DNA of 64,000 nucleotides from Spirulina sp. (GCA_044070495.1 JBIPSI010000007.1:64001-128000), one strand, 5' to 3'; counted from the first letter of the stretch, positions 2,066 to 62,430 are shown. The notes: generated by a model not told the origin, from the letters alone. Numbers and translations: made by a program.

Positions 2066-2710
2066 TTAGACCGCTAGGGCCGTCTGTTCCCGAATTTGGG
2101 CGATCAGATCCCCTAGACCGTAGGGATTCACTCGATAGCTGAGGGGATGGGCGATGAGGCGGGCGGTGCTGTAGTAGAGCACCTCAAGTTCCGTGAGGTT
2201 GTTCTCTCGCAGGGTTTTGCCCGTAGACACCAAGTCCACAATGGCCTCGGACATCCCCGTGATGGGGCCAAGCTCCACTGAACCGGAGAGGGGCACAATA
2301 TCGACAGGTAGGTCAAGACTCTGAAAATAGTCCTGGGCGCAGTGGACAAACTTAGAGGCAATGCGGCTGTGGGCTGGAATATCTAGGGCCGACCGATAGG
2401 GGCTATCCGCCTTCACCGCCACCGAGAGCCGACAGCCGCCAAAGCCCAGATCCGCCAAATTGGCCACGGTGGGCTGTTTTTCCCGCAGCACGTCGTAGCC
2501 CACAATGCCCAACTGCGCCTGCCCATACTCCACATACACGGGCACATCCTGCGCCCGCACCAGCAGCGCTCTGGCTCGTCCGGTGGGGTCGAGGATTTGC
2601 AGTTGGCGGTTGGCCTTGTCTTGGAACAGGCTGAAATCTAGACCCACTCGCTGAAACAGTTGAATGCTGTCGCCGAGGAGGGCACCCTTGGGCAAGGCAA
2701 TGGTAAGCAT
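2066..2710 (-). CDS. hisG: ATP phosphoribosyltransferase, short form
   Basis: [50 protein letters not shown]; 214 aa. Confidence 0.97.
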
Positions 2711-2861
2711 AGGTCGGGTAGTCGATGGCCTTTGCTATCTTACCCCCCATTCCAGGGGCTATCCCTCATCCCGCTTGTATCTTGGCTTACCAAACCCTAT
2801 CCGACCGAGGCAACACCCGCTAGGATGGAACCGGATAGATGGGGTGTAACCGTTGAGAATC

Positions 2862-3314
2862 ATGGGTTCTGGAAGTAAGACCTACGGCATTATTGGTTGG
2901 CGCGAGTGGGTGGCGCTGCCCAATCTAGGGGTGCCTGCCATCAAGGCTAAGGTGGATACTGGGGCGCGATCCTCGGCGCTTCACGCCTTTGACCTAGAAC
3001 ATTTTGACCGCAACGGCGCAACCATGGTGCGGTTCCAGGCCCACCCCATTCAGCGGGATGATCAGTACATTATCTCGGTAGAGGCGGTGCTGCTGGAGGA
3101 GCGGTGGGTGCGTAACTCTGGTGGCCAAGAGGAACTGCGTCCGGTGATTGAAACCACCGTGCAGGTGGGAGAGCACATTTGGCCCATGGAACTGACCCTC
3201 ACCAACCGCGACGTGATGGGGTTTCGCCTCTTGCTGGGGCGACAGGCGGTGCGGCAGCGATACCTGGTGGATCCAGGGCACTCCTACCTACAACCCCTAC
3301 CAACGTCATCCTGA
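2862..3314 (+). CDS. RimK-associated retropepsin-like protease (RimB/ATP-dependent Zn protease family)
   Basis: [40 protein letters not shown]; directly upstream of rimK; ATG at 2862 preferred over TTG at 2853. Confidence 0.88.
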
Positions 3315-3390
3315 CAGTCAAGCGATTCAAGATCGGTCTTGGTTTATCCGTTTTTACCTTGTCTGCCCGTTAACGATCCTTAGGCCCGCT

Positions 3391-4305: not shown

Positions 4306-4908
4306 TCCCAAAGAGGATCTGGCTAACTCGTTTTGTCCGTCAACCCGATCAAACCGTCCAACCGTTTTTTGTGTGAAGCCTACTTCATACATACCCGTTT
4401 AACCTTGATATTTTCTTTATCAATTACTCGTCGGAAATTTAAGTATAAATACTGAGATTCTGGCTGACCTGATGTAGTTTCAATGAAATGGACTCCAATT
4501 TTCTGAGTTCATCCTAGCTGGCTATTCCGTAGGAGTACCCGCTAGATAAGACAATATTGAAAGATATGGATTCAGAAAGAAGAACGCATTGATAACAGGG
4601 CCGTTTATCTCCGCTACTTCACGGATTAAAAGGCTTGTCAGTGGTTTTACGGCCTTGAGACTCTACCACCTAAAGTCTATTTCAGACTATTTTTTATAGG
4701 GGTTTCACCCCTCTTAAGAGATTTTCAACCCTTCGCTAAGGTAAAGACATCGAAACATAGAACTGGGTGAATGTTCAGATCTTTGTGGTCAGTCTCGCTT
4801 TCCGTAAATAGGATGGCACGGGGCTAGGTTGATCTGTGTCTACCCTAGGCTTTGGCCAGGGCAGGCGGTTGGGGATGTAGCCCGGTTAGTCTCAGTAGGG
4901 TGCTCAAA

Positions 4909-23756: not shown

Positions 23757-26700
23757 CTACACGTACACCTGCCAACCGGCGGGGGGATCGGGATAGTCGA
23801 TGGTGCTGGCGACGGTGGTGCCGTTCATGGCCCAGGCGAAGGTATCCCCGGTGGTGGGGTTACGCCAGAGCAGATCGGTTTGGTTGTCGCCATTGAGGTC
23901 GGTGGCCCCCCGCAGTTCGTAGGCCGGATCCAGCGCGGGCAGCAGCACACCGTTGGCGATGGTGCCGTTTGGCCCCATTTCCCACACCACCACTGCCGGG
24001 GCAAACTGGTGCTGCCAGACAAAGTCCTCGATGCCATCCCCCGTAAAGTCGGCGGTGGCCACAAGGTCGTAGGCCGGATCCACTGCTGTCAGGTTTGTGT
24101 CGCTGGAGAAGGTGGTACCGTTCATCAACCAGACTAGGTTTTGGCCCGTGGTGGGATTGCGCCACACGATATCGTCAAAGCCATTCTGGTTGATGTCGGT
24201 GAGGGCCGCCATCTCAAAGCTGGGATCCAAGGAGGGCAGCACCACGCCATCCACCAGTTCTCCCGCTTGGAGCGTCCAGATCACGTTAGCCCCCGTGACA
24301 TTGCGCCACAGCACATCCTGGCTGCCATCGTTGTTGAAATCGGTGAAGCCGACAATGCTCCAGGTAGGATCCACCACGGGCAGAAGGATTCCCCCTTGCA
24401 CCGTGGCCCCATCCATCAGCCAGATGCCCATGTCACCGGAGGCGGAGTTCCGCCAGAAGACATCGTTGCGGCCATCGTTGTTGAAGTCTGCCACCGACTG
24501 GATGCTAAAGGCGCTATCTAGGGGGCGCACGGGCAGGCCGTTGGTGAGGTTGCCGGAGGCATCCAAGGTCCAGATCACGTTATCCACGCCGGGTTCAAAC
24601 CGCCAGAAAACATCGGGCAACCCATTCCCCGTAAAGTCCGTAATCGGATAGAGAATCGTGGCGGTTTCGGTGCCGCCGCTAAAGGACTGCCCCTGGTTGT
24701 CAATGGCGGTAACGGTAATGGTGTAGGTACCAAAGGCTTTGTACACCTTGGTGACATCCCCCGGCTGGGTGGCGGTGCTGGTGGTGCCATCGCCCCAATC
24801 CACCTGGAAGGCGACGTATTGGTCATCACCGGGGTCTACGGGGGTACCAATGGTGAGGGTGTAGGGGCTGTTGGCCTTGACGGGGCCAGACCCCGACAGG
24901 GCGATGGTGGGCGGCACGTCGTTGACCGTCACGGTGGTGGTGCCCTGGGCCGTGGCCTGGCCATCGTTGACGGTGACGGTAATCACAAACACCCCATCAT
25001 CGGCGTAGGTGCGGTTAACGGCGGGCAAGCTAAAGTTGCCGCCCCCGTTGTTGACGATTTGGCTGGTGGGGATGGTGGTGGTGGTGCCATTGCCCCAGTT
25101 GACGGTGACCGTGTGGACGGTGGAATCCACATCCACGAAGGTGCCGTTGAGGATGACCGCGCTGCCCTCGTTGATAGTGGTGGTGCTGAGGGTGAGCACC
25201 ACGCTCTCCGGTGCATCGTTGACCCGGGTAAAGGTAACGTTGGCCGGAACTGCTGGCAGGGTGACGGTGCCGTCGGTGAGGGTGAGGGTAAAGCTAGGGG
25301 CTGCCTCATTGCCATCGTGGACAAAGAAGATCAACCCGTCCAGCACATCCTGCTGGCTAAAGGTGGTGATCCCCGGTGCATCGGGTACGCCATCGAGATT
25401 CGTATCGCGGCTAAACTGCCCGCCCGCTAGGCCACCCACCGTATACCGCAACTGGGCCGGGGTGTTGTCGGGATCCACCACCGATAGGTTGGTCGCCGAT
25501 AGCTTCAGGGTGCCCCCCTCGGTCACGGGGAAGGCATTGATCGACAACACCGGCGGATCGTTGGTTGGGGTAAAGATCACGTTGCCTGGGGCTACCGTGG
25601 TGCCTCCACTGCCATCGGCTAGGGAGAGGGTGAAGGCGGCGGGGGTTTCGCTGCCGTTGTGGCGGAAGAAAATCAGCCGATTATCCACATCCAGTTGGCT
25701 AAAGGAGGTGACGTTCGACCCGGTGCCGACATTAAAGAAGACCCCGCCCTGCAACCCAGACACCGTGTAGACCAGTTGGCTGCGATTGGTGGTTTCCTCG
25801 TCGGTGGCATCCAAGTTGGCCGTAGAGAGTTCCAGGTTGCGCCCTTCGGTGATGGGGAAGTTGTTCACCGTGATCTGAGGCAGATCGTTGACGGGGGTAA
25901 AGTTGACCGTAGCGACGCGGGTGGCGGGCCGAGACCCCAGCGGATCGTTGTCGTTGACGGTGAGGGTGTAGGCCGGAGTGAGACCATCATCGCTGGCGGT
26001 GAAGGACACCTGCCCCAGCACCAGTTGGGTGCGGGTAAAGGTATCGCCCGCCGCCAATACGGTGCCATCTACGGTAAAGAAGCCGTTTTGCACCGTATCC
26101 ACCGTGAAGGTCAGCAAGCTCAGGGGCGTATCAATGTCGCTCACCGTGATATCGCTGGTGGACAGCACCACGGTTTGGCCCTCGGCAATGGTGAGCACAT
26201 TGCGGCTAAACACCGGCGCATCGTTCACGCGGTTGTAGGTAATTACCGCTGGCACCTGGCCGGAGGTGCCGCCATTGGGATCCGTGACCTCCAGGGTAAA
26301 GGCGGGCGTGGTTTCAGACCCATCGTGGCGGAAGACAATCTCGTTGCCCGCATTGATCTGGGCCTGGGTGAAGGTAAACACCTCGTCGCCATCGGGGATG
26401 GTGAAGAATCCGCCCCCGGTCACGTTCCGCACCCGGTAGATCAGCCGTGTGGGGTCGGTGGTTTCTTCGTCGGTGGCCCGCAGGTTGGCATCGCTCAGCA
26501 CCAGGGGTTGGCCTTCGGTAATGGTGAACTGGTTCACCGCTAGTACGGGGGCATCGTTGAGGGCGGTAAAGGTTACCGTGGCGGCGACGGTGGTCGCGTC
26601 TCCGTCGGGATCGGTGGCCACGAGATCGAAGGTGGGTGGCGCATTGTTGCCATCATCCACAAAGGTGAGCCGACCGAGGGAGAGATCCACGGCATTAAAG

Positions 26701-29700
26701 GTCGTGGCGGGGGTTAGGGCCGCACCGTTGAAGAAGAAACTGCCGCCCACCACGTTGGTTACGGAGTAGACAATCTGGTCGTCGGGGTGGTCGGGGTCGG
26801 TGGCGTTGATGTTGCTCAAATCCAGGGTCACCGTAGCCCCCTCCGTTACCGTTAGGTTGCTGGCCTGGAAGGTGGGAGGATCGTTGAGGTTCGTGAAGTT
26901 GATGGTGCTAGCACGGGTCACCGTAGCCCCATCCCCATCGGTCACCACCAGGGTATAGGTGGGAGCCTGCTCGCTGCCGCTGTGGACAAACTGCACCCGA
27001 CCATTGGCCACATCATCTTGGCTGAAGCTAGTGATCGCCGTACCGGGGGTAGCTACCCGCTCAAACCGACCATTAGTCACGCTTTGCACCTGGTAGGTCA
27101 GGTCGGCATCCCCCGATTCCTCGTCCTCAGTCAGCAGGTTAGCGATGCCTAGCACAACGGTTTGGCCCTCGTTGAGGGTGAGGGTGTTGACCGAGAACAC
27201 CGGATCATCGTTGACCGGCTCAAAGGTAATGGTGGCGGATCGTTCCGCAAACCCGGTCTCGCTGTCGGTGACGCGCAGGGTATAGGCGGGGGCGGTTTCC
27301 GTGCCATCGTGGACAAACTGGATGGCTGCGGCCTCCACCTGGGCCTGGGTAAAGCTGGTGATAGCGGTTTGGGTGGGGTCGCTGGCGAGGACAAACTTGC
27401 CGCCGGTGACGGTGCCCACGATGCTGTAGGTCAGATCCGCCACGCCGTCTTCCTCATCGCTAGATAGGAGGTTGGCGGTCGTGAGGGTAACGGTGGTGCC
27501 TTCGGTGATGGTAAGGGCGTTCACCGAGAATACCGGATTATCGTTGACGCGGTTAAAGGTAATGGTGGCGTCACTGGGGTCGCTGAGGGCACCTTCGCTA
27601 TCCTGCGCCCGCAGGGTGTAGGTGGGCGGGGTTTCCCCACTGGCCGGATCGTGAACAAACCGCACTTCGCCACTATTCAACTGCACCTGGGTAAAGGTGG
27701 TGATAGCGGTGCCTGGGGCGGTAGTGAGTTCAAAGCGACCATTGGTAACGGCATCCACCACATAGACGAGATCCAGAACGGCGGTTTCCTCATCGCTGGC
27801 CGTGAGGTTGGTGCCAAGGGCATTCAGCACCACCGATCCTTCTTCGGCGATGGTCAGCGTATTGGTGCCAATGGTGGGCCGATCATTCACCCGACTAAAG
27901 TCGATAGTGGCGTTGCTGGGGGCCGTTGTCAGCGGTGCCCCCGACACCGAGCCACCATCCGTCAGGGTGAGGGTATAGGTGGGCGGGGTTTCCGTACCAT
28001 TATGGACAAACTGAATCGCGCCAGCGTTGACCTCCGCCTGGGTAAAGCTGGTAATGGCCGTCCCTGGGGTAGCGACCCGCTCAAACTGTCCTGCGGTCAC
28101 GCCCGTGACCGTATAGGTAACCTGGGCGGGGCTAGATTCTTCGTCGCTGTACTGAAGGTTGGCGCTGCCCAGCACCACCGTTTGCCCCTCGGTGATGGTC
28201 AGGGTATTGCGGGTAATCGCCGGAGGATCGTTGACATCGGTGAAGGTGACGGTGGGGGTGCCCGTTCCCGTCAGATCCTGGGGATCCTTCACGGTCACGG
28301 TGTAGTTGGGCACCACGCTGGTACCGTTTTGCACAAAGCGCACCTGGTTCGCCGTCACCTGGGCCTGGGTAAAGCTGAACACGGCGGTTCCCGGCGTGCT
28401 GGTGAGCTCAAACTGGCCCCCCACCACGCTAGACACCTCAAAGCGGAGTTCCCCAGCCGGGGTTTCTGGATCGCTGGCCCGCAGCACGCCACCAGTGGTG
28501 CCGCCTGTGACGCCATCGCCAAAGATTACCGTGCCGCCCTCGGCAATGGTGAGGGTATTGGCGACGATGGTGGGGGCATCGTTAATCGGCGTGAAGTTCA
28601 CGGTGCCCACCTGGGTGGTGGTGCGCGGAGTGGTGGGGTCGTCGTCGGTGACGGTGATGGTGTAGGTGGGTGGGGTTTCTTCGTCGGCGGGGGGCTGGGT
28701 AAACTGAATATCTCCCAGAATGATGTCCCCTAGGGTAAAGCTCAAGATCGCCGTCCCCGGAGCACTCACCCGCTCGAAGCGCCCCCCGGTCACCGCCGTA
28801 ATATCGAAGCGCAGGTTGGTATCCAGGCTTTCCACATCGGTAGCATTGATGTTAGCGGTGGAAAGCACCAGGGTGCCGCCTTCGGTAAGGTCAAAGCTGT
28901 TGGCCGTAAAGGTCGGCGCATCGTTGACGTTGGTGAAGGTAACGTTGCCGTTGCTGGTCACCACGCCGCCCGTGCTATCGCTAACGCTGAGGGTGTAGCT
29001 GGGGGTTTCTTCGGTGCCGTTGTGGACAAAGCGAATGGTCTGGTCGTCTAGTTGCTGCTGGGTGAAACTGGTGATGGCTACCCCGGCATTGGAGACATCC
29101 TCAAACTGCCCTGCCGTTACGGCGGTGACGGTGTAGACAATCTGGGTTTTGTCGAGGGTTTCCTCGTCGGTGGTCACCAGATCGGGATTGAGGGGATCGG
29201 CATTGAACAGGAACGCCCCCTCTTCTTCGATGATCAGCCGATTGCGCTGCACCACGGGCAGATCGTTCACCGAGGTAAAGGTCACCTCGGCGTTCCTAAA
29301 GGTGTTGCCGCCGTCGCTGTCGAGTACCTGAATGGCGTAGGTTGGGCGGGTTTCGGTGCCATTGTGCACAAACCGCACCCGTTGGTTAATGATGTCCTCG
29401 CGGGTGAAGCGGCTGGTCTTCACAAACACGCCGCTGCCGTCCTTAAGCTGGAACTCGCCCCCGGCAAAGGTATCGTTTTCCACAAACACGCTGGCCGCAA
29501 TCTGCCCCACCACAAAGGTGAGGGTGTTGTCGTTGTCTTCAACGTCGCTGGCGTTGATGTCGGTGGTGGTAATCAGCCGGGTTTGGCCCTCGGTGATGGT
29601 GAGGCGATTGTTAATCAGGTTCGGCGCATCGTTGAGGTTGGTAAAGACAATATTGGCCTCGCTTTCCACCTCGTTCACCCCATCGCTGACGGTGAGGGTG

Positions 29701-32700
29701 TAGGTGGGGGCCGCTTCGTCGCCATTGTGGACAAACTGCACCCGGCTATTGTCGATGTCGTCTTGGGTGAAGCTGGTAATCGCCGTGCCGGGATTGGCCA
29801 CCAGTTCAAACCGCCCACCGCTGAGGCCGCTGACGGTGTAAGTGAGGCCCGTGGCGGGGGTCTCTTCGTCGCTGGTGGCAATGTTGCTGCCCGATAGCAC
29901 CAGGGTCTGCCCTTCGTCGATGGTGAGGGTATTGGTGCCAAAGATAGGGATGTCGTTCACGGTGGTGAAACTCACCGTGGCGGGGCCGCTGGCGGTGAGG
30001 GGTTCCGCATCCCGCACCGTGAGGGTGTAGGCGGGGGCCACCTCGTTGCCGGAATGCACAAACCGCACGTTGCCGTTGAGGATGTCTTGGCGGCTGAAGG
30101 TGGTGGTGGGGCTAAAGGGCGTGGTGCTGCTGGCCCGCCGTTCAAAGGTGCCCGCCGCCGGATTGAGGCCGCTAATGTCAAAGATCAGGGTGTTGTCGTC
30201 GTTGTCGGGGTCGGTGGCGTCGATATTTTGCAGGGTGATGGTCACGACGTCGCCCTCGGTGAGGGTGAGGCTGTTGGCCAAAATCCGAGGCGGGTCGTTG
30301 ACGTTAATAAAGGTAACCACGGCAGAACTGGGGGTAGAGAGCAATCCGTCGCTGACGGTGTATTCCAACACAGGCACAATGTCTTCGCCACCATGGACAA
30401 AGGTGACCCGACCACCGTCAATGTCGGCCTGGGTAAAGGTAGTTTGGGTGGTACCACTCACCTGAATCACGCCGCCTTCGATGCGGGTAATGGTGTATTG
30501 CAACTCACCCTCACGATTCGTCAGCGCCAGTTCTTCATCGGTGGCGCTGAGGCTCGCACTGGTGATCAACGTCGGTTGGCCCTCGGTTACCGTAAAGCTG
30601 CGGTTGCCGATCACCGGGGCATCGTTGACCGGAATAAAGGTGATGTTGGCCGGAGTGGTGACTACGCCGCCAGTGCTGCCATCCCGCACCGTAATGCTGA
30701 AGGCAGGGCGCGTTTCGTTACCGTCATCAATAAAGGTGACGCGCCCCTCAATCACATCCAGCAGGTTAAAGAAGTTGTCGGATCCGCCCGCCACGGCAAA
30801 CCGTTCCCCCGTTGCTAGGCCAGTAATCTCAAAGGCGAGGTTGGGGTCAAAGGTTTCAATGTCGGTGGCATTGAGGTTGGCCTGGGTAATCAGCAGCGGC
30901 TGCCCCTCGGTGATGGTGAACTGGTTGGCCGTAATCACCGGCAGGTCGTTCACCGCATCCAGGAATAGGTTGACCACCACGGTATCTACGCCGCCGTCGC
31001 CATCGCTCAGTTCTAGGGTAAAGAAATCGGCCCCAGAGACATTCGGGTTGGGCGTGTAGCGAAATTCCTGGGGTTGTCCGGCCACGGCGGGCAGAATCGT
31101 TACCGTGCCCTGGTTGGGAGCTGCCGAAACGCGCCACTGCAAGGTATCGGTCACCCCCGGATCCTGTGCTCCTAGGGAGAAGAGAATCGGGGTATCTTCC
31201 TGGCCCAGGGGCAGGGTAATGCTGGGGGGCACCGCCGTCCCACCCGCATCGGTAATGGTGGGGGCCACGTTGTTGACGGTGATCGCCTGGGTGCGGCTGG
31301 TCATGGCCCCAGCGGCGTCCTCCACCATGACGGTGACGGTGTAGTTGCCCTCATCGGCGTAGGTGTGGCTGCGGGCGGGCAGGGTGTAGGTGGTGCCCGC
31401 TAGGGTCAGATCCGTGGCGGCTAGGGTGGTCACGGGAGTGCCATCACCCCAGTCAATGGTGACCGTGTGGCTGTCGCCGCTGTCTACGTCCGTAAAGCTG
31501 CCCGTCAGGCTAATGCTGCTGCCTTCATTGATCGTGGTGAAGTCCGGGGTAATCGCTAAGCTCGTCGGATCGTCGTTGACGGGCTCCACATCCACCAGCA
31601 CGTTGATGATGCTGACCCCGCCGTTGCCGTCGCTGACCTGAACATCAAAGCTGGTGTTTTGGTCAAAGTTAGCCGCTGGGGTAAAGACTAGGGTTTGGCT
31701 ACCGGAACCGTTGGGGTTGGTGACAAAGGTGACGGTGCCGTTGGGGGGCTGGGCCACCACCGACCACTGGAAGGTCGTATCTGCCGGATCGGTGGCGTCC
31801 AGATCGAAGGTGAGGGGGGTGTCTTCGTCGGTGCTGAGCGCCAGGAATGCCCCCTGCACAATGCTAGGAGCCACATTGGCCACCGGTAAAGATAGGGTAT
31901 CGCTGACGGTCAAATTGGCGGAATCCCGCACAATGGCGCTAATGGAGAACGCCCCAGCGCCGCTATCGGCTAGGTAGGTGTGGCTGGTGGTAAAGCGATA
32001 GTTGCCGTTGCCGAGGTTGGTCACATCGCCGTTAGACAGCACTACGGCGGGGGTGCCATCGCCCCAGTTGATGGTGACCGTAAAGGTATCCCCCAGGTCA
32101 GGGTCCGAGAAGATCCCGGTTAGGGTGAAGGTATCCCCTTCGTTGATGGTTGCCACATCCCCTAGGATATTGAGGCCCCTCGGTGGGTCGGGCTGGGGCA
32201 CCACGGTGACGTTCACCACAATGGTGTCGAAGCCGCCATTGTTATCCGCCACCTGCACCTCAAAGGTGTCGGTGCCCGCAAAGTCGGGGTTGGGCAGGTA
32301 GGAAATAATTTGGTTGCGGCCCGTGGGCGAGGTGGAAACGCTGGCCGTACCGTTGCTGGCCTGGTTGAGAATGTCCCAGGTGAGGGTATCCAGGCGTCCT
32401 GGATCGGTGGCATTGAGGGTGAAGGTGGTGGGGCTGTCTTCGTTTACCGAAATCGCCAGCGTTGCCCCCTGGGTAATGGTGGGCGGCACGTTATTGACCA
32501 CTACGGCAACGGTGCGCGGGGCTGAGGTGAGGCCGCTGGCATCTTCCACCGTCATGGTGATGGTGTAGGTGGCGTTGTCTTGGTAGGTGTGGCGCAGGTT
32601 GGCGAAGGAAAAATTACCGTCGGCATCGGGGCCAGCCAGGTTTGCGCCGCCGATCACATCGCTGGTGCCATCGCCCCAACTAATGGTGACCGTATGCAGA

Positions 32701-34025
32701 TCGTCGGCATCGGCGTCCCTAAAGCTGCCCGACACCGTAATCTGACCACCCTCGTTAATACTGCTTTGGTTCGTGGTTAGCCCGGTGATGATCGGGGCTT
32801 CGTTGACATCCAAAATGTTGACGGTGACCAACTGCTCGTTGCTTAGCCCCCCGGCATCGGTGGCCCGCACCAACAGGTTATAGGCGGTGGCAAAGGTTTC
32901 AAAGTTGAGATCGTCCGCATCGTTGACGGTGATCGCCCCCGTGCTGGCGTTAATCAGAAAGGCTCGGTTGCCGTCGTTGTCGTTGTCGGGGTTGCCCGAC
33001 ACCAGCGACCAGGTCAGTCCGGGCTCGTTGGCGGTTACCGTACCCACCGCCACCCCATTGGCCGAGTGCTCGTTAATGTTAAAGACTTGGTTCGGCGTAA
33101 TCTGCGGGGCCGTATTCAGGTTGAGCTGTACCGCCCCCGTGGCCGACCCTACCCCATCCACCGCAAAGTAGTAGGTGGTGCCCGCCACGGCGGTAAAGGT
33201 CACCTGGCTCTTGAGGTTGCTGCCGCTGATGTTGTCGTTAAAAGCCACCTGGTTAAGGCTGTTGACGGAACCGCCCGTATACACCGCCAGCACCGTGTTG
33301 TTGAGGGCGCTGCCGATGGTATCCAACGTAATCAGCCCCGTGGTGGTCGCCGTCCACTGCCACCAGATCGAATTGTTGAGGCTCTCCTGCACGGACTGGT
33401 TCAATCCGCTTACATTGGGGTCGTGGATGGGTTCGCCCAACTGGTGGGTCGCCCCTACGGTGGTTCCGGTGTTGGTGCTGGGCGTCCACACCGTGGCACC
33501 AGCAAAGTTGTCGGTTCCCAGCACCGCTCGGTATTGGGCCGCCAAAGCAGCACCGACCAACAACCGAGGCGAAACCTGCCCCACGGTGGTATCGAGCCGC
33601 CAGTCGCCCCCCAAATCGCCATGGCCCACCAGCCGAGGGGAAGCCGCAACCCCTGCCCCGGTCAAATGGTGGATTCTCGCCAAAAACTCAGCCCCGGCAT
33701 CCCCCGCCGCCACCTGACAACCGTAGAGGTAAATTTGGGGCGAGGAATCGGTGGCGAACCAGTGACCTAGGGCCTCGGTGTAGCGATCCAGGCTGTCCAA
33801 ATCCAGGTGGGTGTTGCCTAGGCTGAGGCGTCCCGGCGCACCGTGGGCCACCACAATCAGGGTATCCGTTGGGTGATGCCCCAGGGCCTCGGTGATCACC
33901 GCCACCCCATCCTCATCGGCCTGGATAACGCGGAGAGAACCCTGGCCGCCTAGCTCATCCATCAAGCGCCAGCATTCATCTACCTGAGAATCGACAACAA
34001 TGAGAGGACTAGGGTAGTTTGCCAT
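23757..34025 (-). CDS. Giant adhesin-like protein: DUF4347, cadherin/PKD/Ig repeats, about 17 cadherin-like repeats, C-terminal FG-GAP repeats
   Basis: 3422 aa; AHGAPG..LYGCQVA..GGDWRL (DUF4347), TVTIxWGDG (PKD), VNDxP linkers, NxLTIxEG...FTQ..I..G.V.FVHxG repeats, DFNNDGxxDVxW tail. Confidence 0.88.
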   Translation of the reverse strand: MANYPSPLIVVDSQVDECWRLMDELGGQGSLRVIQADEDGVAVITEALGHHPTDTLIVVAHGAPGRLSLGNTHLDLDSLDRYTEALGHWFATDSSPQIYLYGCQVAAGDAGAEFLARIHHLTGAGVAASPRLVGHGDLGGDWRLDTTVGQVSPRLLVGAALAAQYRAVLGTDNFAGATVWTPSTNTGTTVGATHQLGEPIHDPNVSGLNQSVQESLNNSIWWQWTATTTGLITLDTIGSALNNTVLAVYTGGSVNSLNQVAFNDNISGSNLKSQVTFTAVAGTTYYFAVDGVGSATGAVQLNLNTAPQITPNQVFNINEHSANGVAVGTVTANEPGLTWSLVSGNPDNDNDGNRAFLINASTGAITVNDADDLNFETFATAYNLLVRATDAGGLSNEQLVTVNILDVNEAPIITGLTTNQSSINEGGQITVSGSFRDADADDLHTVTISWGDGTSDVIGGANLAGPDADGNFSFANLRHTYQDNATYTITMTVEDASGLTSAPRTVAVVVNNVPPTITQGATLAISVNEDSPTTFTLNATDPGRLDTLTWDILNQASNGTASVSTSPTGRNQIISYLPNPDFAGTDTFEVQVADNNGGFDTIVVNVTVVPQPDPPRGLNILGDVATINEGDTFTLTGIFSDPDLGDTFTVTINWGDGTPAVVLSNGDVTNLGNGNYRFTTSHTYLADSGAGAFSISAIVRDSANLTVSDTLSLPVANVAPSIVQGAFLALSTDEDTPLTFDLDATDPADTTFQWSVVAQPPNGTVTFVTNPNGSGSQTLVFTPAANFDQNTSFDVQVSDGNGGVSIINVLVDVEPVNDDPTSLAITPDFTTINEGSSISLTGSFTDVDSGDSHTVTIDWGDGTPVTTLAATDLTLAGTTYTLPARSHTYADEGNYTVTVMVEDAAGAMTSRTQAITVNNVAPTITDAGGTAVPPSITLPLGQEDTPILFSLGAQDPGVTDTLQWRVSAAPNQGTVTILPAVAGQPQEFRYTPNPNVSGADFFTLELSDGDGGVDTVVVNLFLDAVNDLPVITANQFTITEGQPLLITQANLNATDIETFDPNLAFEITGLATGERFAVAGGSDNFFNLLDVIEGRVTFIDDGNETRPAFSITVRDGSTGGVVTTPANITFIPVNDAPVIGNRSFTVTEGQPTLITSASLSATDEELALTNREGELQYTITRIEGGVIQVSGTTQTTFTQADIDGGRVTFVHGGEDIVPVLEYTVSDGLLSTPSSAVVTFINVNDPPRILANSLTLTEGDVVTITLQNIDATDPDNDDNTLIFDISGLNPAAGTFERRASSTTPFSPTTTFSRQDILNGNVRFVHSGNEVAPAYTLTVRDAEPLTASGPATVSFTTVNDIPIFGTNTLTIDEGQTLVLSGSNIATSDEETPATGLTYTVSGLSGGRFELVANPGTAITSFTQDDIDNSRVQFVHNGDEAAPTYTLTVSDGVNEVESEANIVFTNLNDAPNLINNRLTITEGQTRLITTTDINASDVEDNDNTLTFVVGQIAASVFVENDTFAGGEFQLKDGSGVFVKTSRFTREDIINQRVRFVHNGTETRPTYAIQVLDSDGGNTFRNAEVTFTSVNDLPVVQRNRLIIEEEGAFLFNADPLNPDLVTTDEETLDKTQIVYTVTAVTAGQFEDVSNAGVAITSFTQQQLDDQTIRFVHNGTEETPSYTLSVSDSTGGVVTSNGNVTFTNVNDAPTFTANSFDLTEGGTLVLSTANINATDVESLDTNLRFDITAVTGGRFERVSAPGTAILSFTLGDIILGDIQFTQPPADEETPPTYTITVTDDDPTTPRTTTQVGTVNFTPINDAPTIVANTLTIAEGGTVIFGDGVTGGTTGGVLRASDPETPAGELRFEVSSVVGGQFELTSTPGTAVFSFTQAQVTANQVRFVQNGTSVVPNYTVTVKDPQDLTGTGTPTVTFTDVNDPPAITRNTLTITEGQTVVLGSANLQYSDEESSPAQVTYTVTGVTAGQFERVATPGTAITSFTQAEVNAGAIQFVHNGTETPPTYTLTLTDGGSVSGAPLTTAPSNATIDFSRVNDRPTIGTNTLTIAEEGSVVLNALGTNLTASDEETAVLDLVYVVDAVTNGRFELTTAPGTAITTFTQVQLNSGEVRFVHDPASGETPPTYTLRAQDSEGALSDPSDATITFNRVNDNPVFSVNALTITEGTTVTLTTANLLSSDEEDGVADLTYSIVGTVTGGKFVLASDPTQTAITSFTQAQVEAAAIQFVHDGTETAPAYTLRVTDSETGFAERSATITFEPVNDDPVFSVNTLTLNEGQTVVLGIANLLTEDEESGDADLTYQVQSVTNGRFERVATPGTAITSFSQDDVANGRVQFVHSGSEQAPTYTLVVTDGDGATVTRASTINFTNLNDPPTFQASNLTVTEGATVTLDLSNINATDPDHPDDQIVYSVTNVVGGSFFFNGAALTPATTFNAVDLSLGRLTFVDDGNNAPPTFDLVATDPDGDATTVAATVTFTALNDAPVLAVNQFTITEGQPLVLSDANLRATDEETTDPTRLIYRVRNVTGGGFFTIPDGDEVFTFTQAQINAGNEIVFRHDGSETTPAFTLEVTDPNGGTSGQVPAVITYNRVNDAPVFSRNVLTIAEGQTVVLSTSDITVSDIDTPLSLLTFTVDTVQNGFFTVDGTVLAAGDTFTRTQLVLGQVSFTASDDGLTPAYTLTVNDNDPLGSRPATRVATVNFTPVNDLPQITVNNFPITEGRNLELSTANLDATDEETTNRSQLVYTVSGLQGGVFFNVGTGSNVTSFSQLDVDNRLIFFRHNGSETPAAFTLSLADGSGGTTVAPGNVIFTPTNDPPVLSINAFPVTEGGTLKLSATNLSVVDPDNTPAQLRYTVGGLAGGQFSRDTNLDGVPDAPGITTFSQQDVLDGLIFFVHDGNEAAPSFTLTLTDGTVTLPAVPANVTFTRVNDAPESVVLTLSTTTINEGSAVILNGTFVDVDSTVHTVTVNWGNGTTTTIPTSQIVNNGGGNFSLPAVNRTYADDGVFVITVTVNDGQATAQGTTTVTVNDVPPTIALSGSGPVKANSPYTLTIGTPVDPGDDQYVAFQVDWGDGTTSTATQPGDVTKVYKAFGTYTITVTAIDNQGQSFSGGTETATILYPITDFTGNGLPDVFWRFEPGVDNVIWTLDASGNLTNGLPVRPLDSAFSIQSVADFNNDGRNDVFWRNSASGDMGIWLMDGATVQGGILLPVVDPTWSIVGFTDFNNDGSQDVLWRNVTGANVIWTLQAGELVDGVVLPSLDPSFEMAALTDINQNGFDDIVWRNPTTGQNLVWLMNGTTFSSDTNLTAVDPAYDLVATADFTGDGIEDFVWQHQFAPAVVVWEMGPNGTIANGVLLPALDPAYELRGATDLNGDNQTDLLWRNPTTGDTFAWAMNGTTVASTIDYPDPPAGWQVYV

Positions 34026-36524: not shown

Positions 36525-37241
36525 ATGGATCGGCCTTGGATCACCCTGGTGTTGGCCATGAGCCTGGATGGCAAAATTGCCGATACCCAGCGACGGGCGG
36601 CGCGATTTTCTTCCCAGGCCGATCTTGAACACCTGGAGGCCAGGGTAGCGGCGGCGGATGGCGTGCTGTTTGGCGGCGGCACCCTGCGAGCCTACGGCAC
36701 CACCCTCAGCGTCCGCAATCCTGCGCTGATTGAAGCCCGCCGTCAGCGAGGCCAACCCAATCAGCCCATTCACATTGTTTGGTCACCATCGGGGCAACTA
36801 GATCCGCAGTGGCGCTTTTTTCAGCAGCCCATCCCCCGTGGACTGATTACCACCACCGCCGGGGCAAAACCCTGGCAATCGGGGGCGCACTTTGATCGCC
36901 TGTGGGTGATGCCCGATGACCAGATCGCTCCCTGGAATTGGCCAGAACTGCTAGCTCAGTTTCCCGCCCAAGGGCTCCACAGCCTAGCCCTCCTCGGCGG
37001 CGGTTACCTCACCGCCGAACTCCTTCGCCACGGGCTGGTTCATGAGGTTTACATTACCCTCTGCCCCCTACTGCTGGGGGGTGCCACCGCCCCCACCCCC
37101 GTGGATGGCGAGGGGTTTTTGGCCGAAGTCGCCCCCCGCCTTACCCTCTTGGAAAGCCACGTTGTGGGCGACGAAGTGTTTCTGCACTACCTCGTCCAAT
37201 CACCGCCCCACCGGCCCACGGCCCGTCGTACCAGGCCTTGA
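36525..37241 (+). CDS. RibD C-terminal (reductase-like) domain protein
   Basis: LAMSLDGKIA, GGGTLRA, LLGGGYL, EVYITLCPLLLGG, EVFLHY. Confidence 0.88.
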   Translation: MDRPWITLVLAMSLDGKIADTQRRAARFSSQADLEHLEARVAAADGVLFGGGTLRAYGTTLSVRNPALIEARRQRGQPNQPIHIVWSPSGQLDPQWRFFQQPIPRGLITTTAGAKPWQSGAHFDRLWVMPDDQIAPWNWPELLAQFPAQGLHSLALLGGGYLTAELLRHGLVHEVYITLCPLLLGGATAPTPVDGEGFLAEVAPRLTLLESHVVGDEVFLHYLVQSPPHRPTARRTRP

Positions 37242-37256
37242 TGCTAAGCAAAGTTT

Positions 37257-37272
37257 TGTAATCAACGCTACA
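37257..37272. promoter_or_regulatory. NtcA box 1
   Basis: TGTA-ATCAACGC-TACA, a perfect GTA-N8-TAC. Confidence 0.75.
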
Positions 37273-37296
37273 GTTTTAGGGCAAGATCCGCAAAAA

Positions 37297-37312
37297 TGTA
37301 GTTGTCGCTACA
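37297..37312. promoter_or_regulatory. NtcA box 2
   Basis: TGTA-GTTGTCGC-TACA, a perfect GTA-N8-TAC. Confidence 0.75.
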
Positions 37313-37330
37313 GATTGCAGGAGACTTGCC

Positions 37331-37462
37331 ATGCTTCCTCCCAGCTCCAGCCAGAATCGTCGCCAAGTCATCAGCGAACTGCGCCACCAGCTCCGCTACG
37401 CCAGCATTGAAGAACGGTCTCGCATTCGCCAGGAACTGAATTTCTGGATGCAGCACCGCTAA
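37331..37462 (+). CDS. Unannotated 43-aa small protein
   Basis: MLPPSSSQNRRQVISELRHQLRYASIEERSRIRQELNFWMQHR; RBS AGGAGA just upstream; fills the intergenic gap; two NtcA boxes upstream. Confidence 0.7.
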   Translation: MLPPSSSQNRRQVISELRHQLRYASIEERSRIRQELNFWMQHR

Positions 37463-37651
37463 GGGCCATTTCTCCCATTCCCTAATGGCCTATTCCCTGA
37501 TGGCCTGAGATGATCCTAAGCCCTCCTACTCCTCAATTGGGCTGAGGCAAGGGGATAGCTGTGGTCATCGGCCCATGGGGATAGGCGTTCACCGCCACCC
37601 AAGGTACCCTAAATGGACAGGCGACCTCAGGGGATGGGGGAATTACGAACC

Positions 37652-38059
37652 ATGCAAGGCGAAACCGATCTGAAGACGCTGATCGCAACCATGCGGCCCC
37701 ATCTGCACGGATCGCCCTACGTTTTTTGCACCGTCAACCGGGAGGCCGATGTCGGTCTCCCGGTTTCTCCCGTGGGCACCTTCCAGGAGGAAGAGGGTAT
37801 GACCCTGATCCTGACCCAGCAGCAAGCCTTGGATCAGGGGCTGGCCTTTGAGATGCTGTGGGCCTGTGTCACCCTGACGGTGCATTCCGCGTTGTCTGCG
37901 GTCGGGTTTCTGGCCGCCATCACCACTCGGCTGGCGGAGGCGGGTGTTAGCGTTAACCCCGTTTCCGCCTACTACCACGATCACCTCTTTGTGCCCTGGG
38001 AACGACGGCAGGAGGTCGTCGCTATCCTAGAAGACTTGCAGCAAACCTCTGCCGCCTAG
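37652..38059 (+). CDS. ACT-domain protein (DUF2241-like)
   Basis: GETDLKTLI, YVFC, FQEEEGMTLI, LTVHSALSAVGF, SAYYHDHLFVP. Confidence 0.88.
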   Translation: MQGETDLKTLIATMRPHLHGSPYVFCTVNREADVGLPVSPVGTFQEEEGMTLILTQQQALDQGLAFEMLWACVTLTVHSALSAVGFLAAITTRLAEAGVSVNPVSAYYHDHLFVPWERRQEVVAILEDLQQTSAA

Positions 38060-44766: not shown

Positions 44767-45156
44767 TCAGATTGCACTAGAGGAAGCATCAGAGAGAATA
44801 GGCTCATCATGGGCACTTGCACAATCTAATAAAGTAGATAACTTTGCCTCTAGCTCTGTCTTATCTACAAGACCTGTATCTATGACAAGCTTTTCTAAAA
44901 CGGTATACCAGCGCTGGTAGTAGTCCCAGGTTGGATCGTCTAGATTATGCTCTGACTCCCACTCATCAATGGTGGAAATTAAATTTTTACGAAAGTCTTC
45001 CCACTCGTAATGCCCTTTTTTAGATAGGGCTATGGCAAGCGCAAAGGCAACCTGTTCCCAACTTCGCTTGAAAGCAAGACTTCCATTCTCTCGAGGAGGA
45101 GATTCTTCACTGCCCATTAAGCTAGAAGCAGCAAAATGTTCAAATCGGGTAAACAT
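44767..45156 (-). CDS. Nitrile hydratase accessory/activator protein (P14K-like)
   Basis: PPRENGSLAFKRSWE..AFALAIAL..G.YEWEDFR..L, YYQRW..LEKL; ATG at 45156 preferred. Confidence 0.88.
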   Translation of the reverse strand: MFTRFEHFAASSLMGSEESPPRENGSLAFKRSWEQVAFALAIALSKKGHYEWEDFRKNLISTIDEWESEHNLDDPTWDYYQRWYTVLEKLVIDTGLVDKTELEAKLSTLLDCASAHDEPILSDASSSAI

Positions 45157-45271
45157 GGGAAATAAACCTTCTCCCTGGCTAAAGTAAAGCTTGTCCAAGC
45201 CCAGCGGCATAGTTTTAGCTAGGGGAAAATTTCAATCCCTAAGCTGGACTTGGAAAAAAGTTCGTAACTTT

Positions 45272-45901
45272 CTAAGGAATAGCTACTGTAGCCACACCCA
45301 TCATGGATTCTGGGGTAACAAGGTTGGCCAAATCATCTTCACTCATATGCTCGGTACCAGCAGGTCGTTCTGGCAGCACCCACCAGCGAATCTGTCCGCT
45401 ACTATCCCAAACTCGAACCTCGATAGAATCATCTAGCTCAAGGCCAAACTCCTTTAGAACCTTGCGAGGCTCACGGGCCGCTCTAGATCTGAAGGTTGGA
45501 TCTTTATACCAGTAGGGAGGTAAACCTAACGTCGGCCAAGGGTAGCAGGAACATAGGGTGCAGATGATCAAGTTATGAACAGACGAGGTATTCTCAGCTA
45601 CTCGCATGTGTTCACCTTCCGCACCAGACATGCCAGTTGTCATGCCCATCGCGTCACAGGCCGCATTGCAATCTTTGATTAAAAGCTCCTTGAACTCCGG
45701 ATCAACCCATGCCTTTGCGACCAATTTAGCCCCGTTAAACGGCCCCATCTTGGACTCGAAATATTCCAGCACCTTATTGACAGTTTCACTACCAATAATG
45801 CCTTTTTCAATCAACAAAGCTTCGAGTGCTCTAACCTTTGCAGCACTTTCTAGCTCACGATTGGGACTATAGTTAAAGATCTCATCACCAGGAATAGACA
45901 T
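45272..45901 (-). CDS. nthA: Cobalt-type nitrile hydratase alpha subunit
   Basis: GAKLVAKAWVDPEFK, metal site ICTLCSCYPWPTLGLPPYWYK (Thr/Tyr indicate Co-type), RVWDSS, VLPERP. Confidence 0.95.
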   Translation of the reverse strand: MSIPGDEIFNYSPNRELESAAKVRALEALLIEKGIIGSETVNKVLEYFESKMGPFNGAKLVAKAWVDPEFKELLIKDCNAACDAMGMTTGMSGAEGEHMRVAENTSSVHNLIICTLCSCYPWPTLGLPPYWYKDPTFRSRAAREPRKVLKEFGLELDDSIEVRVWDSSGQIRWWVLPERPAGTEHMSEDDLANLVTPESMMGVATVAIP

Positions 45902-45934
45902 CGGTATCTCACCTCACTTCAAAAAATTCTAGGT

Positions 45935-46681
45935 CTAGGCTGCATCGAGATAGATCTCGAAAATGTCGGCGTAAAAAGTAGATCCAGGTTCAGCGAGATC
46001 TTCACCCCAGATTTCCTTAGGATCAAAGCGGACGCTATAGCTGGGCTGGGCTGGGCCTAATCCATCAGAGGGGCCAGGAAAGTAGGCATAGCACCCTTCA
46101 TAAACGAGGTCAATAACTCCGGTCTTACCACGCAAATGCCCTGGCAGTCGAGTATGTTCAACCACTGGCATATCCTTGACCACTACAGTCTCACCTACGG
46201 AGAACTTTGGCTGAATATTGACGTCTCGCTTCGGAGAGTCACCCAGTTCTAAGTACTTGATGACTTGCTCATCAATAGCGGCAATTTCCTTCTGAGGAAG
46301 TGGGAAGGGGTCAACGTTCCCCTCTTTCAGATAAAAACTGATTTTCTGATCCAGTTCTTCTTGGGAAATATACCCTTTCTCAACAAAGAAGCCAGAGATA
46401 CCACCTAACCACTTTTCGTAGTATCGAAATTTGAAGTAGTCGAAGGGGTTCATGGCTTCTGCCCCTCGCCGCAAATCAGCCCAAGTCCAGATATCCTTAA
46501 AGGTTGTAGGAACCTGCTCAATGGGATAATTAGGTAATGCATCCTTGAGGTGAGCACTTAAACCCATCATGGCTGTATGAATGCCGAAGATGCGCTTTTC
46601 CCATTGCTCAACAAATACTTTCTTCTGAAAGTCTACGGGGCCAAGTCCTTCTAGGCTGCCTAGAGAATGCTGTAATTTCAT
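45935..46681 (-). CDS. nthB: Nitrile hydratase beta subunit
   Basis: WEKR, DLRRGAE, YYEKWL, HTRLPGHLRGKTG, YSVRF..EIWG, DIFEIYL. Confidence 0.92.
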   Translation of the reverse strand: MKLQHSLGSLEGLGPVDFQKKVFVEQWEKRIFGIHTAMMGLSAHLKDALPNYPIEQVPTTFKDIWTWADLRRGAEAMNPFDYFKFRYYEKWLGGISGFFVEKGYISQEELDQKISFYLKEGNVDPFPLPQKEIAAIDEQVIKYLELGDSPKRDVNIQPKFSVGETVVVKDMPVVEHTRLPGHLRGKTGVIDLVYEGCYAYFPGPSDGLGPAQPSYSVRFDPKEIWGEDLAEPGSTFYADIFEIYLDAA

Positions 46682-46731
46682 AAACTCTTTAGCTCCATTT
46701 CACTGATTTCAAGATTTGAATTGTGCTGATT

Positions 46732-47262
46732 TTAGATGTCCTTAGCGGTTTCCCTAGCCGCCTCAACGACAGCAGGAGTTGTCGTCATCGCTTTGCCCCA
46801 AGCTTCGGAAAGATAGCCAAAGATGTTTCCTAGAATCATGGCTGCAATAGCAATTAAAACTGGGTTATTGGGTAAGGGAGCTGTCACCGATAAGCCTGTC
46901 ACGGCAACAGTACCAACGGTTTGTGAAAAACCCCACACAATGGCAGGAGTAATACCGTGGGTGAAAGGAAGCTTTGAGGCCTGCACCATGCCAGCGCTAC
47001 CAATACCAACACAAATGGCGGCAACGAGGGGACTCGGCCCAATTAGATCAATGGCCAATAAAGAAAGAGCTGCAATGATAATCCCCGTAATATTACAGGA
47101 AACAGATTTAGTAAATCCTCGAACGCCACCCCCAACGATAAAAAAGGAGGCCCAGGCCGTGAAGGTAACCCAAACGGGTACAGGGATGACAGTTGCCGTC
47201 AAAAATACATCTACACCGCCAAGAACACCGATGCTAATACTCAGGGCTTCGGACTGTTTCAT
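46732..47262 (-). CDS. DUF1097-like integral membrane protein
   Basis: About 6 TM; PVWVTFTAWASFF, GNIFGYLSE. Confidence 0.7.
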   Translation of the reverse strand: MKQSEALSISIGVLGGVDVFLTATVIPVPVWVTFTAWASFFIVGGGVRGFTKSVSCNITGIIIAALSLLAIDLIGPSPLVAAICVGIGSAGMVQASKLPFTHGITPAIVWGFSQTVGTVAVTGLSVTAPLPNNPVLIAIAAMILGNIFGYLSEAWGKAMTTTPAVVEAARETAKDI

Positions 47263-47288
47263 AATAGGCTTGGCTCCGAATTATTTGG

Positions 47289-48245
47289 TCACATTAAGCA
47301 ATCATGAAAACCGCGCCGCAACTCATCTTCATTTAGGTTGCGACCAATAAAGACCAGTTCATTCCGTCGAGTTTCCCCAGGCTGCCAGGGACGACCTGGG
47401 CGACCATCTAGGGTCATATGAACTCCCTGAAAAACAAACCTTCGATCTTCATAGTCCATGTCGAGGATGCCTTTCATCCGAAAAATATCAGCCCCTCGCT
47501 CTTGCACCAGTTGATAAAGCCAGCGGTTGAATTTATCACCATTGACAACCCCACCTTCTTGCATGGCTACTGAGGCAACGGTCTCATCATGCTCGTGGGC
47601 ATCTTCGTCTAGAAACTCTGGATCGACACTGAGAGCATTCTTCAGATCAAAAGCTCCAACTCCTAACACAGAATCTAGGCTAATTTCACAGTTTTGGGTC
47701 TGATGAATTTTGGCGATTACATTCATCTGTCGAATTCTCTGCTCCAGTTCTTCCAGAATTGGGGGAGAGACTAAATCAACTTTGTTTAGTAAAATGACAT
47801 CGGCAAAAGCAATTTGCTCTTGGGCTTCACTGCTATCCCAATGCTCCCAGATATATTTAGCGTCAACAACGGTGACGATGGCATCTAGAAGAAGCCGTGA
47901 TCGCATGACTTCATCCACAAAAAAAGACTGAATGACAGGGGCAGGATCAGCTAGGCCCGTCGTTTCAATCATGAGGTAGTCAAAATCCTCAGAGCGCTCC
48001 ATCAAGCTACTAATGATGCGAATCAAATCACTTCGCACTGTGCAGCAAATGCAGCCATTATTCATTTCAAGAATTTCTTCGTCAGCACCTATCACAAGCT
48101 GGTTATCGATGCCAACTTCGCCAAATTCATTGACAATCACAGCAATTCGCTTGCCGTGCTGTGCAGTAAGAATATAGTTCAGTAATGTGGTCTTGCCTGC
48201 ACCTAGATATCCAGTCAGTACCGTGGTAGGAATCTGATTCTGCAA
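47289..48245 (-). CDS. CobW/COG0523 GTP-binding metallochaperone
   Basis: [52 protein letters not shown] start with RBS GAGAGG. Confidence 0.93.
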
Positions 48246-62358: not shown

Positions 62359-62430
62359 GGCTCAGTAGCTCAGTGGTAGAGCAGGGGACTCATAAGCCCT
62401 TGGTCGCGTGTTCAAATCACGCCTGAGCCA
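62359..62430 (+). tRNA. trnM: tRNA-Met(CAT), probably elongator
   Basis: GGCTCAG acceptor stem pairs with CTGAGCC, D-arm AGCTCAGTGGTAGAGC, anticodon loop CTCATAA, T-loop GTTCAAATC; CCA not encoded. Confidence 0.92.

Follow-up and report, generated by a model that had tools for sequence, protein, structure and literature searches.

Rapid post-translational control of nitrogen metabolism in cyanobacteria depends in large part on the small proteins IF7, IF17, PirA, PirC, NirP1 and NblD, and to our knowledge all of them were discovered in a few model strains. IF7 is natively disordered. The usual mark of an NtcA-activated promoter is a box near -41.5, with a TAN3T hexamer about 22 nt downstream of its TAC half. 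NtcA sites that lie away from -41.5 or over the start repress, according to the promoter passages of two studies (PMC11848123, PMC5714215). PirA (Ssr0692) of Synechocystis sp. is a small basic protein of 51 aa, almost only cyanobacterial; NtcA represses it, it builds up once ammonium is added, and it works by binding proteins. Its gene stands alone, and the promoter contains a pair of NtcA motifs at -33.5 and -48.5, a spacing of 15 bp (as described in passages of PMC8092223). The proteins IF7 (GifA), IF17 (GifB) and IF17-like are also small, arginine-rich and NtcA-repressed (in the parts of PMC6316151 and PMC6212724 that describe them). The NtcA sites given for Anabaena gifA are at -28.5 and -77.5 (PMC6316151, promoter passage), DUF4278 is the domain reported in IF17 and IF17-like proteins, and in one IF17-like gene from marine picocyanobacteria a perfect NtcA site overlaps the transcription start (PMC6212724, same parts). 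NblD (66 aa) and NirP1 (81 aa) are short as well, have NtcA-dependent promoters and bind abundant protein complexes (PMC11848123, relevant passages).

We compared these systems with a locus in a stretch of 64,000 nucleotides from Spirulina sp., called here the window. As with pirA, a stand-alone gene for a small basic protein follows two NtcA-type boxes, which in the window are 40 bp apart. The features, in window coordinates, are the following:

37250-37261, plus strand: conserved upstream motif AAAGTTTTGTAA, containing the left (GTA) half of box 1; found in the alignment of relatives.
37257-37272 (centre 37264.5), no strand: distal NtcA-type box (box 1), TGTA-N8-TACA, TGTAATCAACGCTACA; read from the sequence.
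37292-37297, plus strand: putative -10 hexamer AAAAAT, which abuts box 2 and shares its first T; proposed from conservation.
37297-37312 (centre 37304.5), no strand: proximal NtcA-type box (box 2), TGTA-N8-TACA, TGTAGTTGTCGCTACA; kept in relatives.
37319-37324, plus strand: Shine-Dalgarno-like AGGAGA, 6 nt 5' of the ATG; read from the sequence.
37331-37462 (stop included), plus strand: gene for a 43-aa basic protein; from the reading frame, homologues, coding selection and structure prediction.

The two perfect boxes at 37257 and 37297, the AGGAGA and the ORF had been reported in a first-pass annotation of this DNA; all can be read directly, and the peptide is exactly the one quoted there. The ORF runs from the ATG at 37331 to the stop codon at 37460-37462 (43 codons plus stop) and sits within the 371 nt that separate two genes of its own strand, one for a RibD_C-type reductase upstream (36525-37241) and one for an ACT_3/ACT_7 protein downstream (37613-38059, plus strand). 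It had been described as hidden, which is right insofar as it falls below the ORF-length cutoff, but near-identical proteins are already annotated publicly as "hypothetical protein", including one of 98% identity in Phormidium sp. FACHB-1136.

All 15 candidates returned by a first protein search are close homologues (71-98% identity), with Phormidium sp. FACHB-1136 and Nodosilinea sp. among the named sources and "hypothetical protein" as the name throughout. A locus scan with one genome per species yielded 51 related loci from Nodosilinea, Leptolyngbya, Phormidium, Tildeniella, Shackletoniella, Trichocoleus and other Leptolyngbyaceae, hence 52 sequences with the window, and an ATG-started frame of 39-45 codons is present in 51 of the 51 loci. 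On the ungapped 26-codon core (52 sequences, 1326 pairs), the in-frame mean pS is 0.658 and the mean pN 0.106, a ratio of 0.16, against 2.2 and 2.1 when the same core is read in the +1 and +2 frames. The entropy sums by codon position (8.25, 5.94 and 31.29) place the variation mostly at third positions. Because the ATG frame is conserved and pN/pS is 0.16 in frame versus about 2.1 in shifted frames, the small ORF is a real protein-coding gene under purifying selection, and the conservation check proposed in the first-pass annotation came out in its favour. At the position equivalent to AGGAGA the relatives have purine-rich GGAG/GAGG-type stretches. The minus strand opposite the small gene has stop-free stretches of 36 to 104 codons across sequences; in the window, a minus-strand ORF of 62 aa (37268-37456) is without family match and was taken as an antisense artefact, given the coding evidence on the plus strand.

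A profile built from 28 sequences and scored against 1.84 billion cluster representatives matched 35 clusters at E ≤ 1e-3 (11 at E ≤ 1e-10), with lengths of 39-84 residues, and every one of the 35 bears the motif ELRHQLRYA...ER..IR..L.FW. A profile search of a 5.8-billion set found 143 proteins, 120 of them listed. Among the matches listed, additional sources are Almyronema, Leptothermofonsia, Kovacikia and a Pseudanabaena sp. FACHB strain, and the names given by the sources are "hypothetical protein" with two exceptions: a JGI label "YdhG (YjbR/CyaY superfamily)" on a 45-residue member, and one metaclust entry whose label is empty. No fused or longer family members were found in these searches; the longer motif-bearing proteins are the same ORF called from an upstream start. 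Leptolyngbyaceae cyanobacterium M33_DOE_097 has clear tandem paralogues at 2819, 2995 and 3158 of one locus (L050, region 2646-3319), with a degenerate fourth at 2646, and a further copy on a second contig (L051:2995-3123). A literature search, including a full-text search for the family motif, found no published description of a 43-aa family of this kind. The family, previously uncharacterised, occurs in thin filamentous cyanobacteria such as Nodosilinea, Leptolyngbya and their relatives. Culturable strains that carry it include Nodosilinea nodulosa PCC 7104 and Phormidium sp. FACHB-1136.

The window protein has a pI of 11.5, a mass of 5.4 kDa and 8 Arg+Lys versus 4 Asp+Glu; the median pI among 34 family members is 10.9. 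Across 28 diverse members, 13 alignment columns never vary (M1, R10, E16, L17, R18, Q20, L21, R22, A24, R29, R33, F38 and W39). AlphaFold2, run on a 34-sequence alignment, models helices at residues 6-23 and 26-41 with a tight turn between them (mean pLDDT 83.7), so that the protein is predicted to be a basic two-helix hairpin, in agreement with the basic, helical-looking character noted in the first pass. Many of the invariant residues, in the ELRHQLRYA stretch and at R29 and R33, are charged or polar, which suggests that a surface for binding, and not the fold core alone, has been conserved.

The first-pass annotation had been unable to match the peptide to GifA, GifB or PirA, and searches for relatives of known function gave little: matches in Pfam, NCBIfam, Rfam and the PDB are all below threshold. 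At E ≤ 1, neither Pfam nor NCBIfam assigns a family to the window protein. A PDB profile search had no hits with the first alignment and five with a second one (A3), at E values from 0.014 to 1.6 and none of them meaningful: a de novo designed protein, the phycobilisome linkers CpcJ and CpcN (E around 1), RESC10 and a GABA-B coiled coil. Foldseek against the PDB returned eight hits, all at E ≥ 4.5, including the PipX chains of 2xko at E 8.9, which is no evidence of relationship because helical hairpins are common. In the ESM Atlas the best score is 0.79, to unnamed clusters and within the chance range. DUF6800 (PF20607) matches 3 of the 34 members below threshold (best 17.3 bits, E 5.5e-3, cutoff 25), in register with the 43-position profile, and is a lead only.

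The TGTA-N8-TACA palindrome is found in only two places in the window, 37257 and 37297, with an expectation of 0.34; at least two occurred in 4 of 100 shuffles. By this measure, confined to the window, such a pair would be no more than moderately improbable by chance. Both boxes fit the NtcA-box pattern GTA-N8-TAC perfectly, NtcA binding itself being predicted, and both have a G at position 10. In the passage of PMC11850224 on the NtcA-DNA crystal structure, R191 contacts a guanine 3 bp from the dyad. The looser GTA-N8-TAC occurs six times in the window. One of the six (2777-2790) falls in the gap that separates hisG (minus strand) from a Zn-protease/RimK-like pair (plus strand); it was rejected as an NtcA site, with no TAN3T or -10 at the canonical spacing, and is probably a chance occurrence. 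Another, at 45588, is inside the alpha-subunit gene of a nitrile hydratase cluster (44770-48245, minus strand) that comprises beta and alpha subunits, a beta-like accessory gene, a CobW-type metallochaperone, a DUF1097 protein and a HupE/UreJ metal transporter.

What argues strongly for the proximal box is its conservation across loci. A GTA-N8-TAC at most 60 nt 5' of the ATG is present in 44 of the 52 sequences (43 of 51 loci plus the window), and the full TGTA-N8-TACA in 42 of 52. The distance from the G of the box to the ATG is 29-37 nt in 43 sequences (mode 32, n = 21) and 44 nt in one. Outside these sites, the 276 kb of loci contain the pattern 24 times, or 0.088 per kb, a background rate that predicts about 0.3 proximal hits where 43 of 51 loci have one. 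The distance between box and ORF stays constant whether the upstream gene encodes a RibD_C protein, an MFS transporter, a metallophosphatase or a GidA-family protein, and whichever its strand. Since the spacing is independent of the upstream gene and of its strand, the proximal box belongs to the small gene. Within the box, GTA and TAC are fixed and positions 4 and 11 vary without compensation (G/C, A/C, T/C, G/A), which points to a constraint on a protein-binding DNA site rather than on an RNA hairpin. The proximal NtcA-type site is predicted to be a conserved operator of the small gene, and we infer that NtcA is the protein that binds it.

Some members of the family depart from this pattern. 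The box is at -64 and -61 in two loci (L025 and L031), is a one-base variant in two others (L005 and L048) and is absent from four (L046, L049, L050 and L051). An exact GTA-N8-TAC within 200 nt of the ATG is missing in 6 of the 52 sequences, and the pattern is absent from the whole 6.1 kb of L050, the locus of the tandem array. Because of these sequences without box and of the boxless tandem paralogues, NtcA control is not universal in the family. In Trichocoleus-like loci, a conserved block of chorismate synthase, cupin and AstE/AspA-family deacylase genes precedes the small ORF (L025:611-1753, L031:1447-2580, L040:1679-2809), ACT and GNAT genes lie 3' of it, and the box, with a different inner sequence (GTAGCAAnGACTAC), is 44-64 nt from the ATG.

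The distal box is another matter. The box-conservation check proposed in the first-pass annotation is borne out by the proximal box (44 of 52) but not by the perfect distal one, which is found in 5 of 52 sequences only (the window and L001-L004); most of the others retain only its GTA half. The motif AAAG[AT][AT]TTG[TC][AG]A begins 46-48 nt 5' of the proximal-box G in 37 of 44 sequences. The reverse complement of this upstream motif resembles one half of the RpaB HLR1 repeat; an HLR1 site was rejected, the second repeat being absent.

The geometry of the promoter bears on the direction of control. The centre of box 2 is 26.5 nt 5' of the ATG, and a start 41.5 nt downstream of it would be 15 nt inside the ORF, so box 2 cannot be a -41.5 activator site for the small ORF. 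The hexamer 22 nt after its TAC is CTTCCT (37334-37339), not TAN3T. The one 22 nt after the TAC of box 1 is AAATGT (37294-37299), with AAAAAT at +20 (TAAACT in relatives), and the earlier observation that neither box is followed by a TAN3T at this distance thus holds. Since box 2 is not in the class-II position, repression is the more likely mode, and repression through box 2 is likely from the arrangement of the sites. The aligned hexamer 5' of box 2 is TAAACT in 34 of 44 sequences, TAAAAT in 3, AAAAAT, the variant of the window's clade, in 4, CAAAAT in 1 and something else in 2; 42 of 44 retain its A at position 2 and its T at position 6. By conservation only, it is a putative -10. The transcription start would then be around 37303-37305, inside box 2, with a leader of about 26 nt carrying the Shine-Dalgarno sequence. 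The conservation of TAAACT may also partly reflect an extended palindrome, AAACTGTAG..CTACAGTTT, in which it mirrors AGTTT across the box. A repressor-type geometry fits this arrangement, in which box 2 abuts a conserved -10-like hexamer and the start is a predicted one.

Other promoter elements were tried and set aside. A simple scan found no sigma-70 consensus promoter, -35 included. The -10 of the first-pass annotation, TACAGT (37269-37274, inside box 1), does not hold up: the right half of box 1 is found only in the window and four close relatives, and the hexamer has no -35 partner. TTGTAA (37256-37261) as a -35 has no -10-like hexamer 16-18 nt further on, in the window or in relatives, and an NtcA-activated promoter reading from box 2 on the minus strand would have no TAN3T at the right spacing. 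Relative to the predicted start, box 1 is centred at about -39.5. This falls 2-3 bp short of the canonical spacing and is closer to the activator register than are the repressing sites given for pirA and Anabaena gifA (promoter passages of PMC8092223 and PMC6316151). Because the conserved -10-like hexamer places it near -39.5, box 1 is not clear evidence for repression, its register being activator-like. The earlier claim that the boxes point to repression is therefore kept, as likely, for box 2, while box 1 may act in either direction.

The reading we prefer, which we hold with moderate confidence, is that NtcA represses the gene, and that its small product is synthesised under ample nitrogen and binds a partner. 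A -10-like hexamer adjoins a perfect NtcA box, and the box would cover the predicted start. At high 2-oxoglutarate (nitrogen limitation), NtcA would sit on box 2 and keep RNA polymerase out; with abundant nitrogen, it would come off box 2 and the small protein would be made, a control logic as known for gifA, gifB and pirA. In the window's clade, the second perfect box 40 bp upstream would probably tighten or modulate this control. The protein most likely binds and modulates a larger protein, because it is too small for an enzyme and has an invariant surface motif. By analogy, its partner may belong to nitrogen or carbon-nitrogen metabolism, e.g., glutamine synthetase or PII. We consider the protein a good candidate to be a new small player in nitrogen control, and the main inference of the first-pass annotation, that of a new small regulator of nitrogen metabolism, a reasonable one. 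A more specific version can be entertained tentatively: an effector of nitrogen excess evolved independently in Nodosilinea, Leptolyngbya and allied lineages, whose arginine-rich hairpin would switch off glutamine synthetase, PII or another (e.g., ACT-domain) target, and whose site in activator register would, together with the operator over the start, give a pulse in a narrow band of 2-oxoglutarate.

The register of box 1 could also be read in the opposite sense, i.e., that the gene is NtcA-activated and induced by starvation, like nblD, with box 1 or its GTA motif recruiting the polymerase and box 2 limiting or timing expression to a pulse at intermediate NtcA activity. The position of box 1 at about -39.5 with 20 nt between TAC and hexamer, the lack of a -35 consensus, the fixed distance of the upstream GTA motif in 37 of 44 sequences and the precedent of Synechocystis gifA, for which a passage of PMC5714215 proposes an activating degenerate site at -45 beside the repressing one, are all consistent with it. 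We nevertheless find it rather unlikely. The distal TAC half is missing in most relatives, and the box perfect in 5 of 52, whereas the ten most-induced Synechocystis promoters keep GTA and TAC well (as presented in the part of PMC5714215 that deals with them). Moreover, the spacing is 2-3 bp short of canonical, and the best-conserved, perfect site sits over the start. The latter also separates the small gene from the longer NblD and NirP1, in that its best-conserved box is outside the activating position (compare the passages on both in PMC11848123).

Returning to the NtcA-repressed protein with a binding partner, one may ask if nitrogen comes into it at all. The protein could be a nucleic-acid- or ribosome-associated, or a structural, micro-protein, and the palindrome could be bound by another factor or couple the protein's level to growth state. 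Ribosomal protein S21 (bS21; PF01165/TIGR00030) matches 3 of the 34 members below threshold, the best at 19.9 bits (E 6.2e-4) against a cutoff of 27, the pI is 11.5, nitrogen genes are absent nearby and some paralogues are boxless. Yet the window protein itself has no S21 match, and the PDB profile search at E ≤ 10 contains no S21 chain. The invariant bases of the palindrome are GTA and TAC with their 8-bp spacing, which is the NtcA signature, and they are kept down to about 60% protein identity. We therefore regard a protein with no direct role in nitrogen as quite improbable. As to the setting, neither glnA, glnB nor other nitrogen-control genes are found elsewhere in the 64-kb window, which otherwise resembles an ordinary cyanobacterial chromosome, and no recurring nitrogen-metabolism gene is seen near the small ORF among the neighbours scanned.

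Some other genes of the window are worth recording in their own right. A 3422-residue ORF (23760-34025, minus strand) with about 17 cadherin-like repeats and Big_9, PKD, FG-GAP and DUF4347 domains probably encodes a giant surface or adhesion protein. The dnaX gene (DNA polymerase III gamma/tau; 53339-55918, minus strand) contains an intein splicing domain at residues 146-307. A 988-residue protein (4852-7815, plus strand) combines a caspase (Peptidase_C14) and an nSTAND1 NTPase domain, the architecture of candidate defence or programmed-cell-death systems.

Among the described systems, the small gene is most like those of the NtcA-repressed IF7, IF17 and PirA, and it cannot be placed demonstrably in either family. 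It might still be a very divergent, lineage-specific form of one of them, PirA or the IF7-like C-terminal region of IF17: size class, basic charge, arginine richness and NtcA boxes in the promoter are shared, and the two boxes of the window recall those of pirA (promoter passage of PMC8092223). The first residues of PirA, as derived from the cloning primers in Table S1 of PMC8092223, are likewise rich in Asn, Arg and Lys. The C-terminus derived from the same primers is different, without a Phe-Trp motif, and it is on these primer-derived ends that PirA was compared (Table S1 of PMC8092223). In the profile search of 1.84 billion representatives the 35 hits all carry the family's own motif, and no named family is hit in Pfam or NCBIfam at E ≤ 1. 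DUF4278 is found in none of the 34 members at E ≤ 10, a comparison that concerns this domain and not the IF7-like region. The promoters differ too: unlike in pirA, the proximal box covers the predicted start, and only one full box is found in most relatives (against the two motifs given in PMC8092223). A glutamine riboswitch of the gifB type is not found in the leader by Rfam. The small protein is modelled as a folded hairpin, from which IF7, as a disordered protein, would differ. We regard a divergent form of a known family as improbable.

The neighbourhood of the gene offers one recurrent association. In the window and at 5 of the 51 loci, the small ORF is followed on its own strand by a gene for a two-ACT-domain protein (ACT_3 + ACT_7); the loci are L004, L031 (3301-3729), L032 (3391-3807), L040 (3279-4178) and L048 (3152-3580). 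The ACT protein is 46-51% identical in distant loci; in L040 it is fused to a GNAT acetyltransferase, and in L048 its gene starts 28 nt after the small ORF. The two genes may represent an ancestral pairing or a functional link. Elsewhere the 3' neighbours include a convergent cdsA-like gene (17 loci) and an enoyl-CoA hydratase gene (10 loci), as counted by Pfam on 83 of 97 nearest-neighbour ORFs. That the ORF is a leader peptide, or the region a non-coding RNA, for the ACT-domain gene at 37613-38059 is suggested by this order of genes, but is scarcely credible and largely refuted, as the other 46 loci have a different and often convergent downstream gene, the peptide sequence is under strong purifying selection and Rfam has no match. 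At the gathering score, the only Rfam match in the whole window is a tRNA at 62359, and at E ≤ 10 the region 37100-37750 has no riboswitch, glutamine riboswitch included, and no known sRNA. A simple scan found no terminator 3' of the ORF, and the RNA fold of 37456-37620 is without an obvious one. The best explanation for 37331-37462 is a stand-alone gene with its own promoter.

The locus adds a conserved family of 43-residue proteins that bears a clear NtcA signature and comes from lineages without a model organism. If the protein is a regulator, it would be a new node in the NtcA regulon, possibly with a new target. Should this reading be true, members of the regulon can be found by sequence conservation alone.
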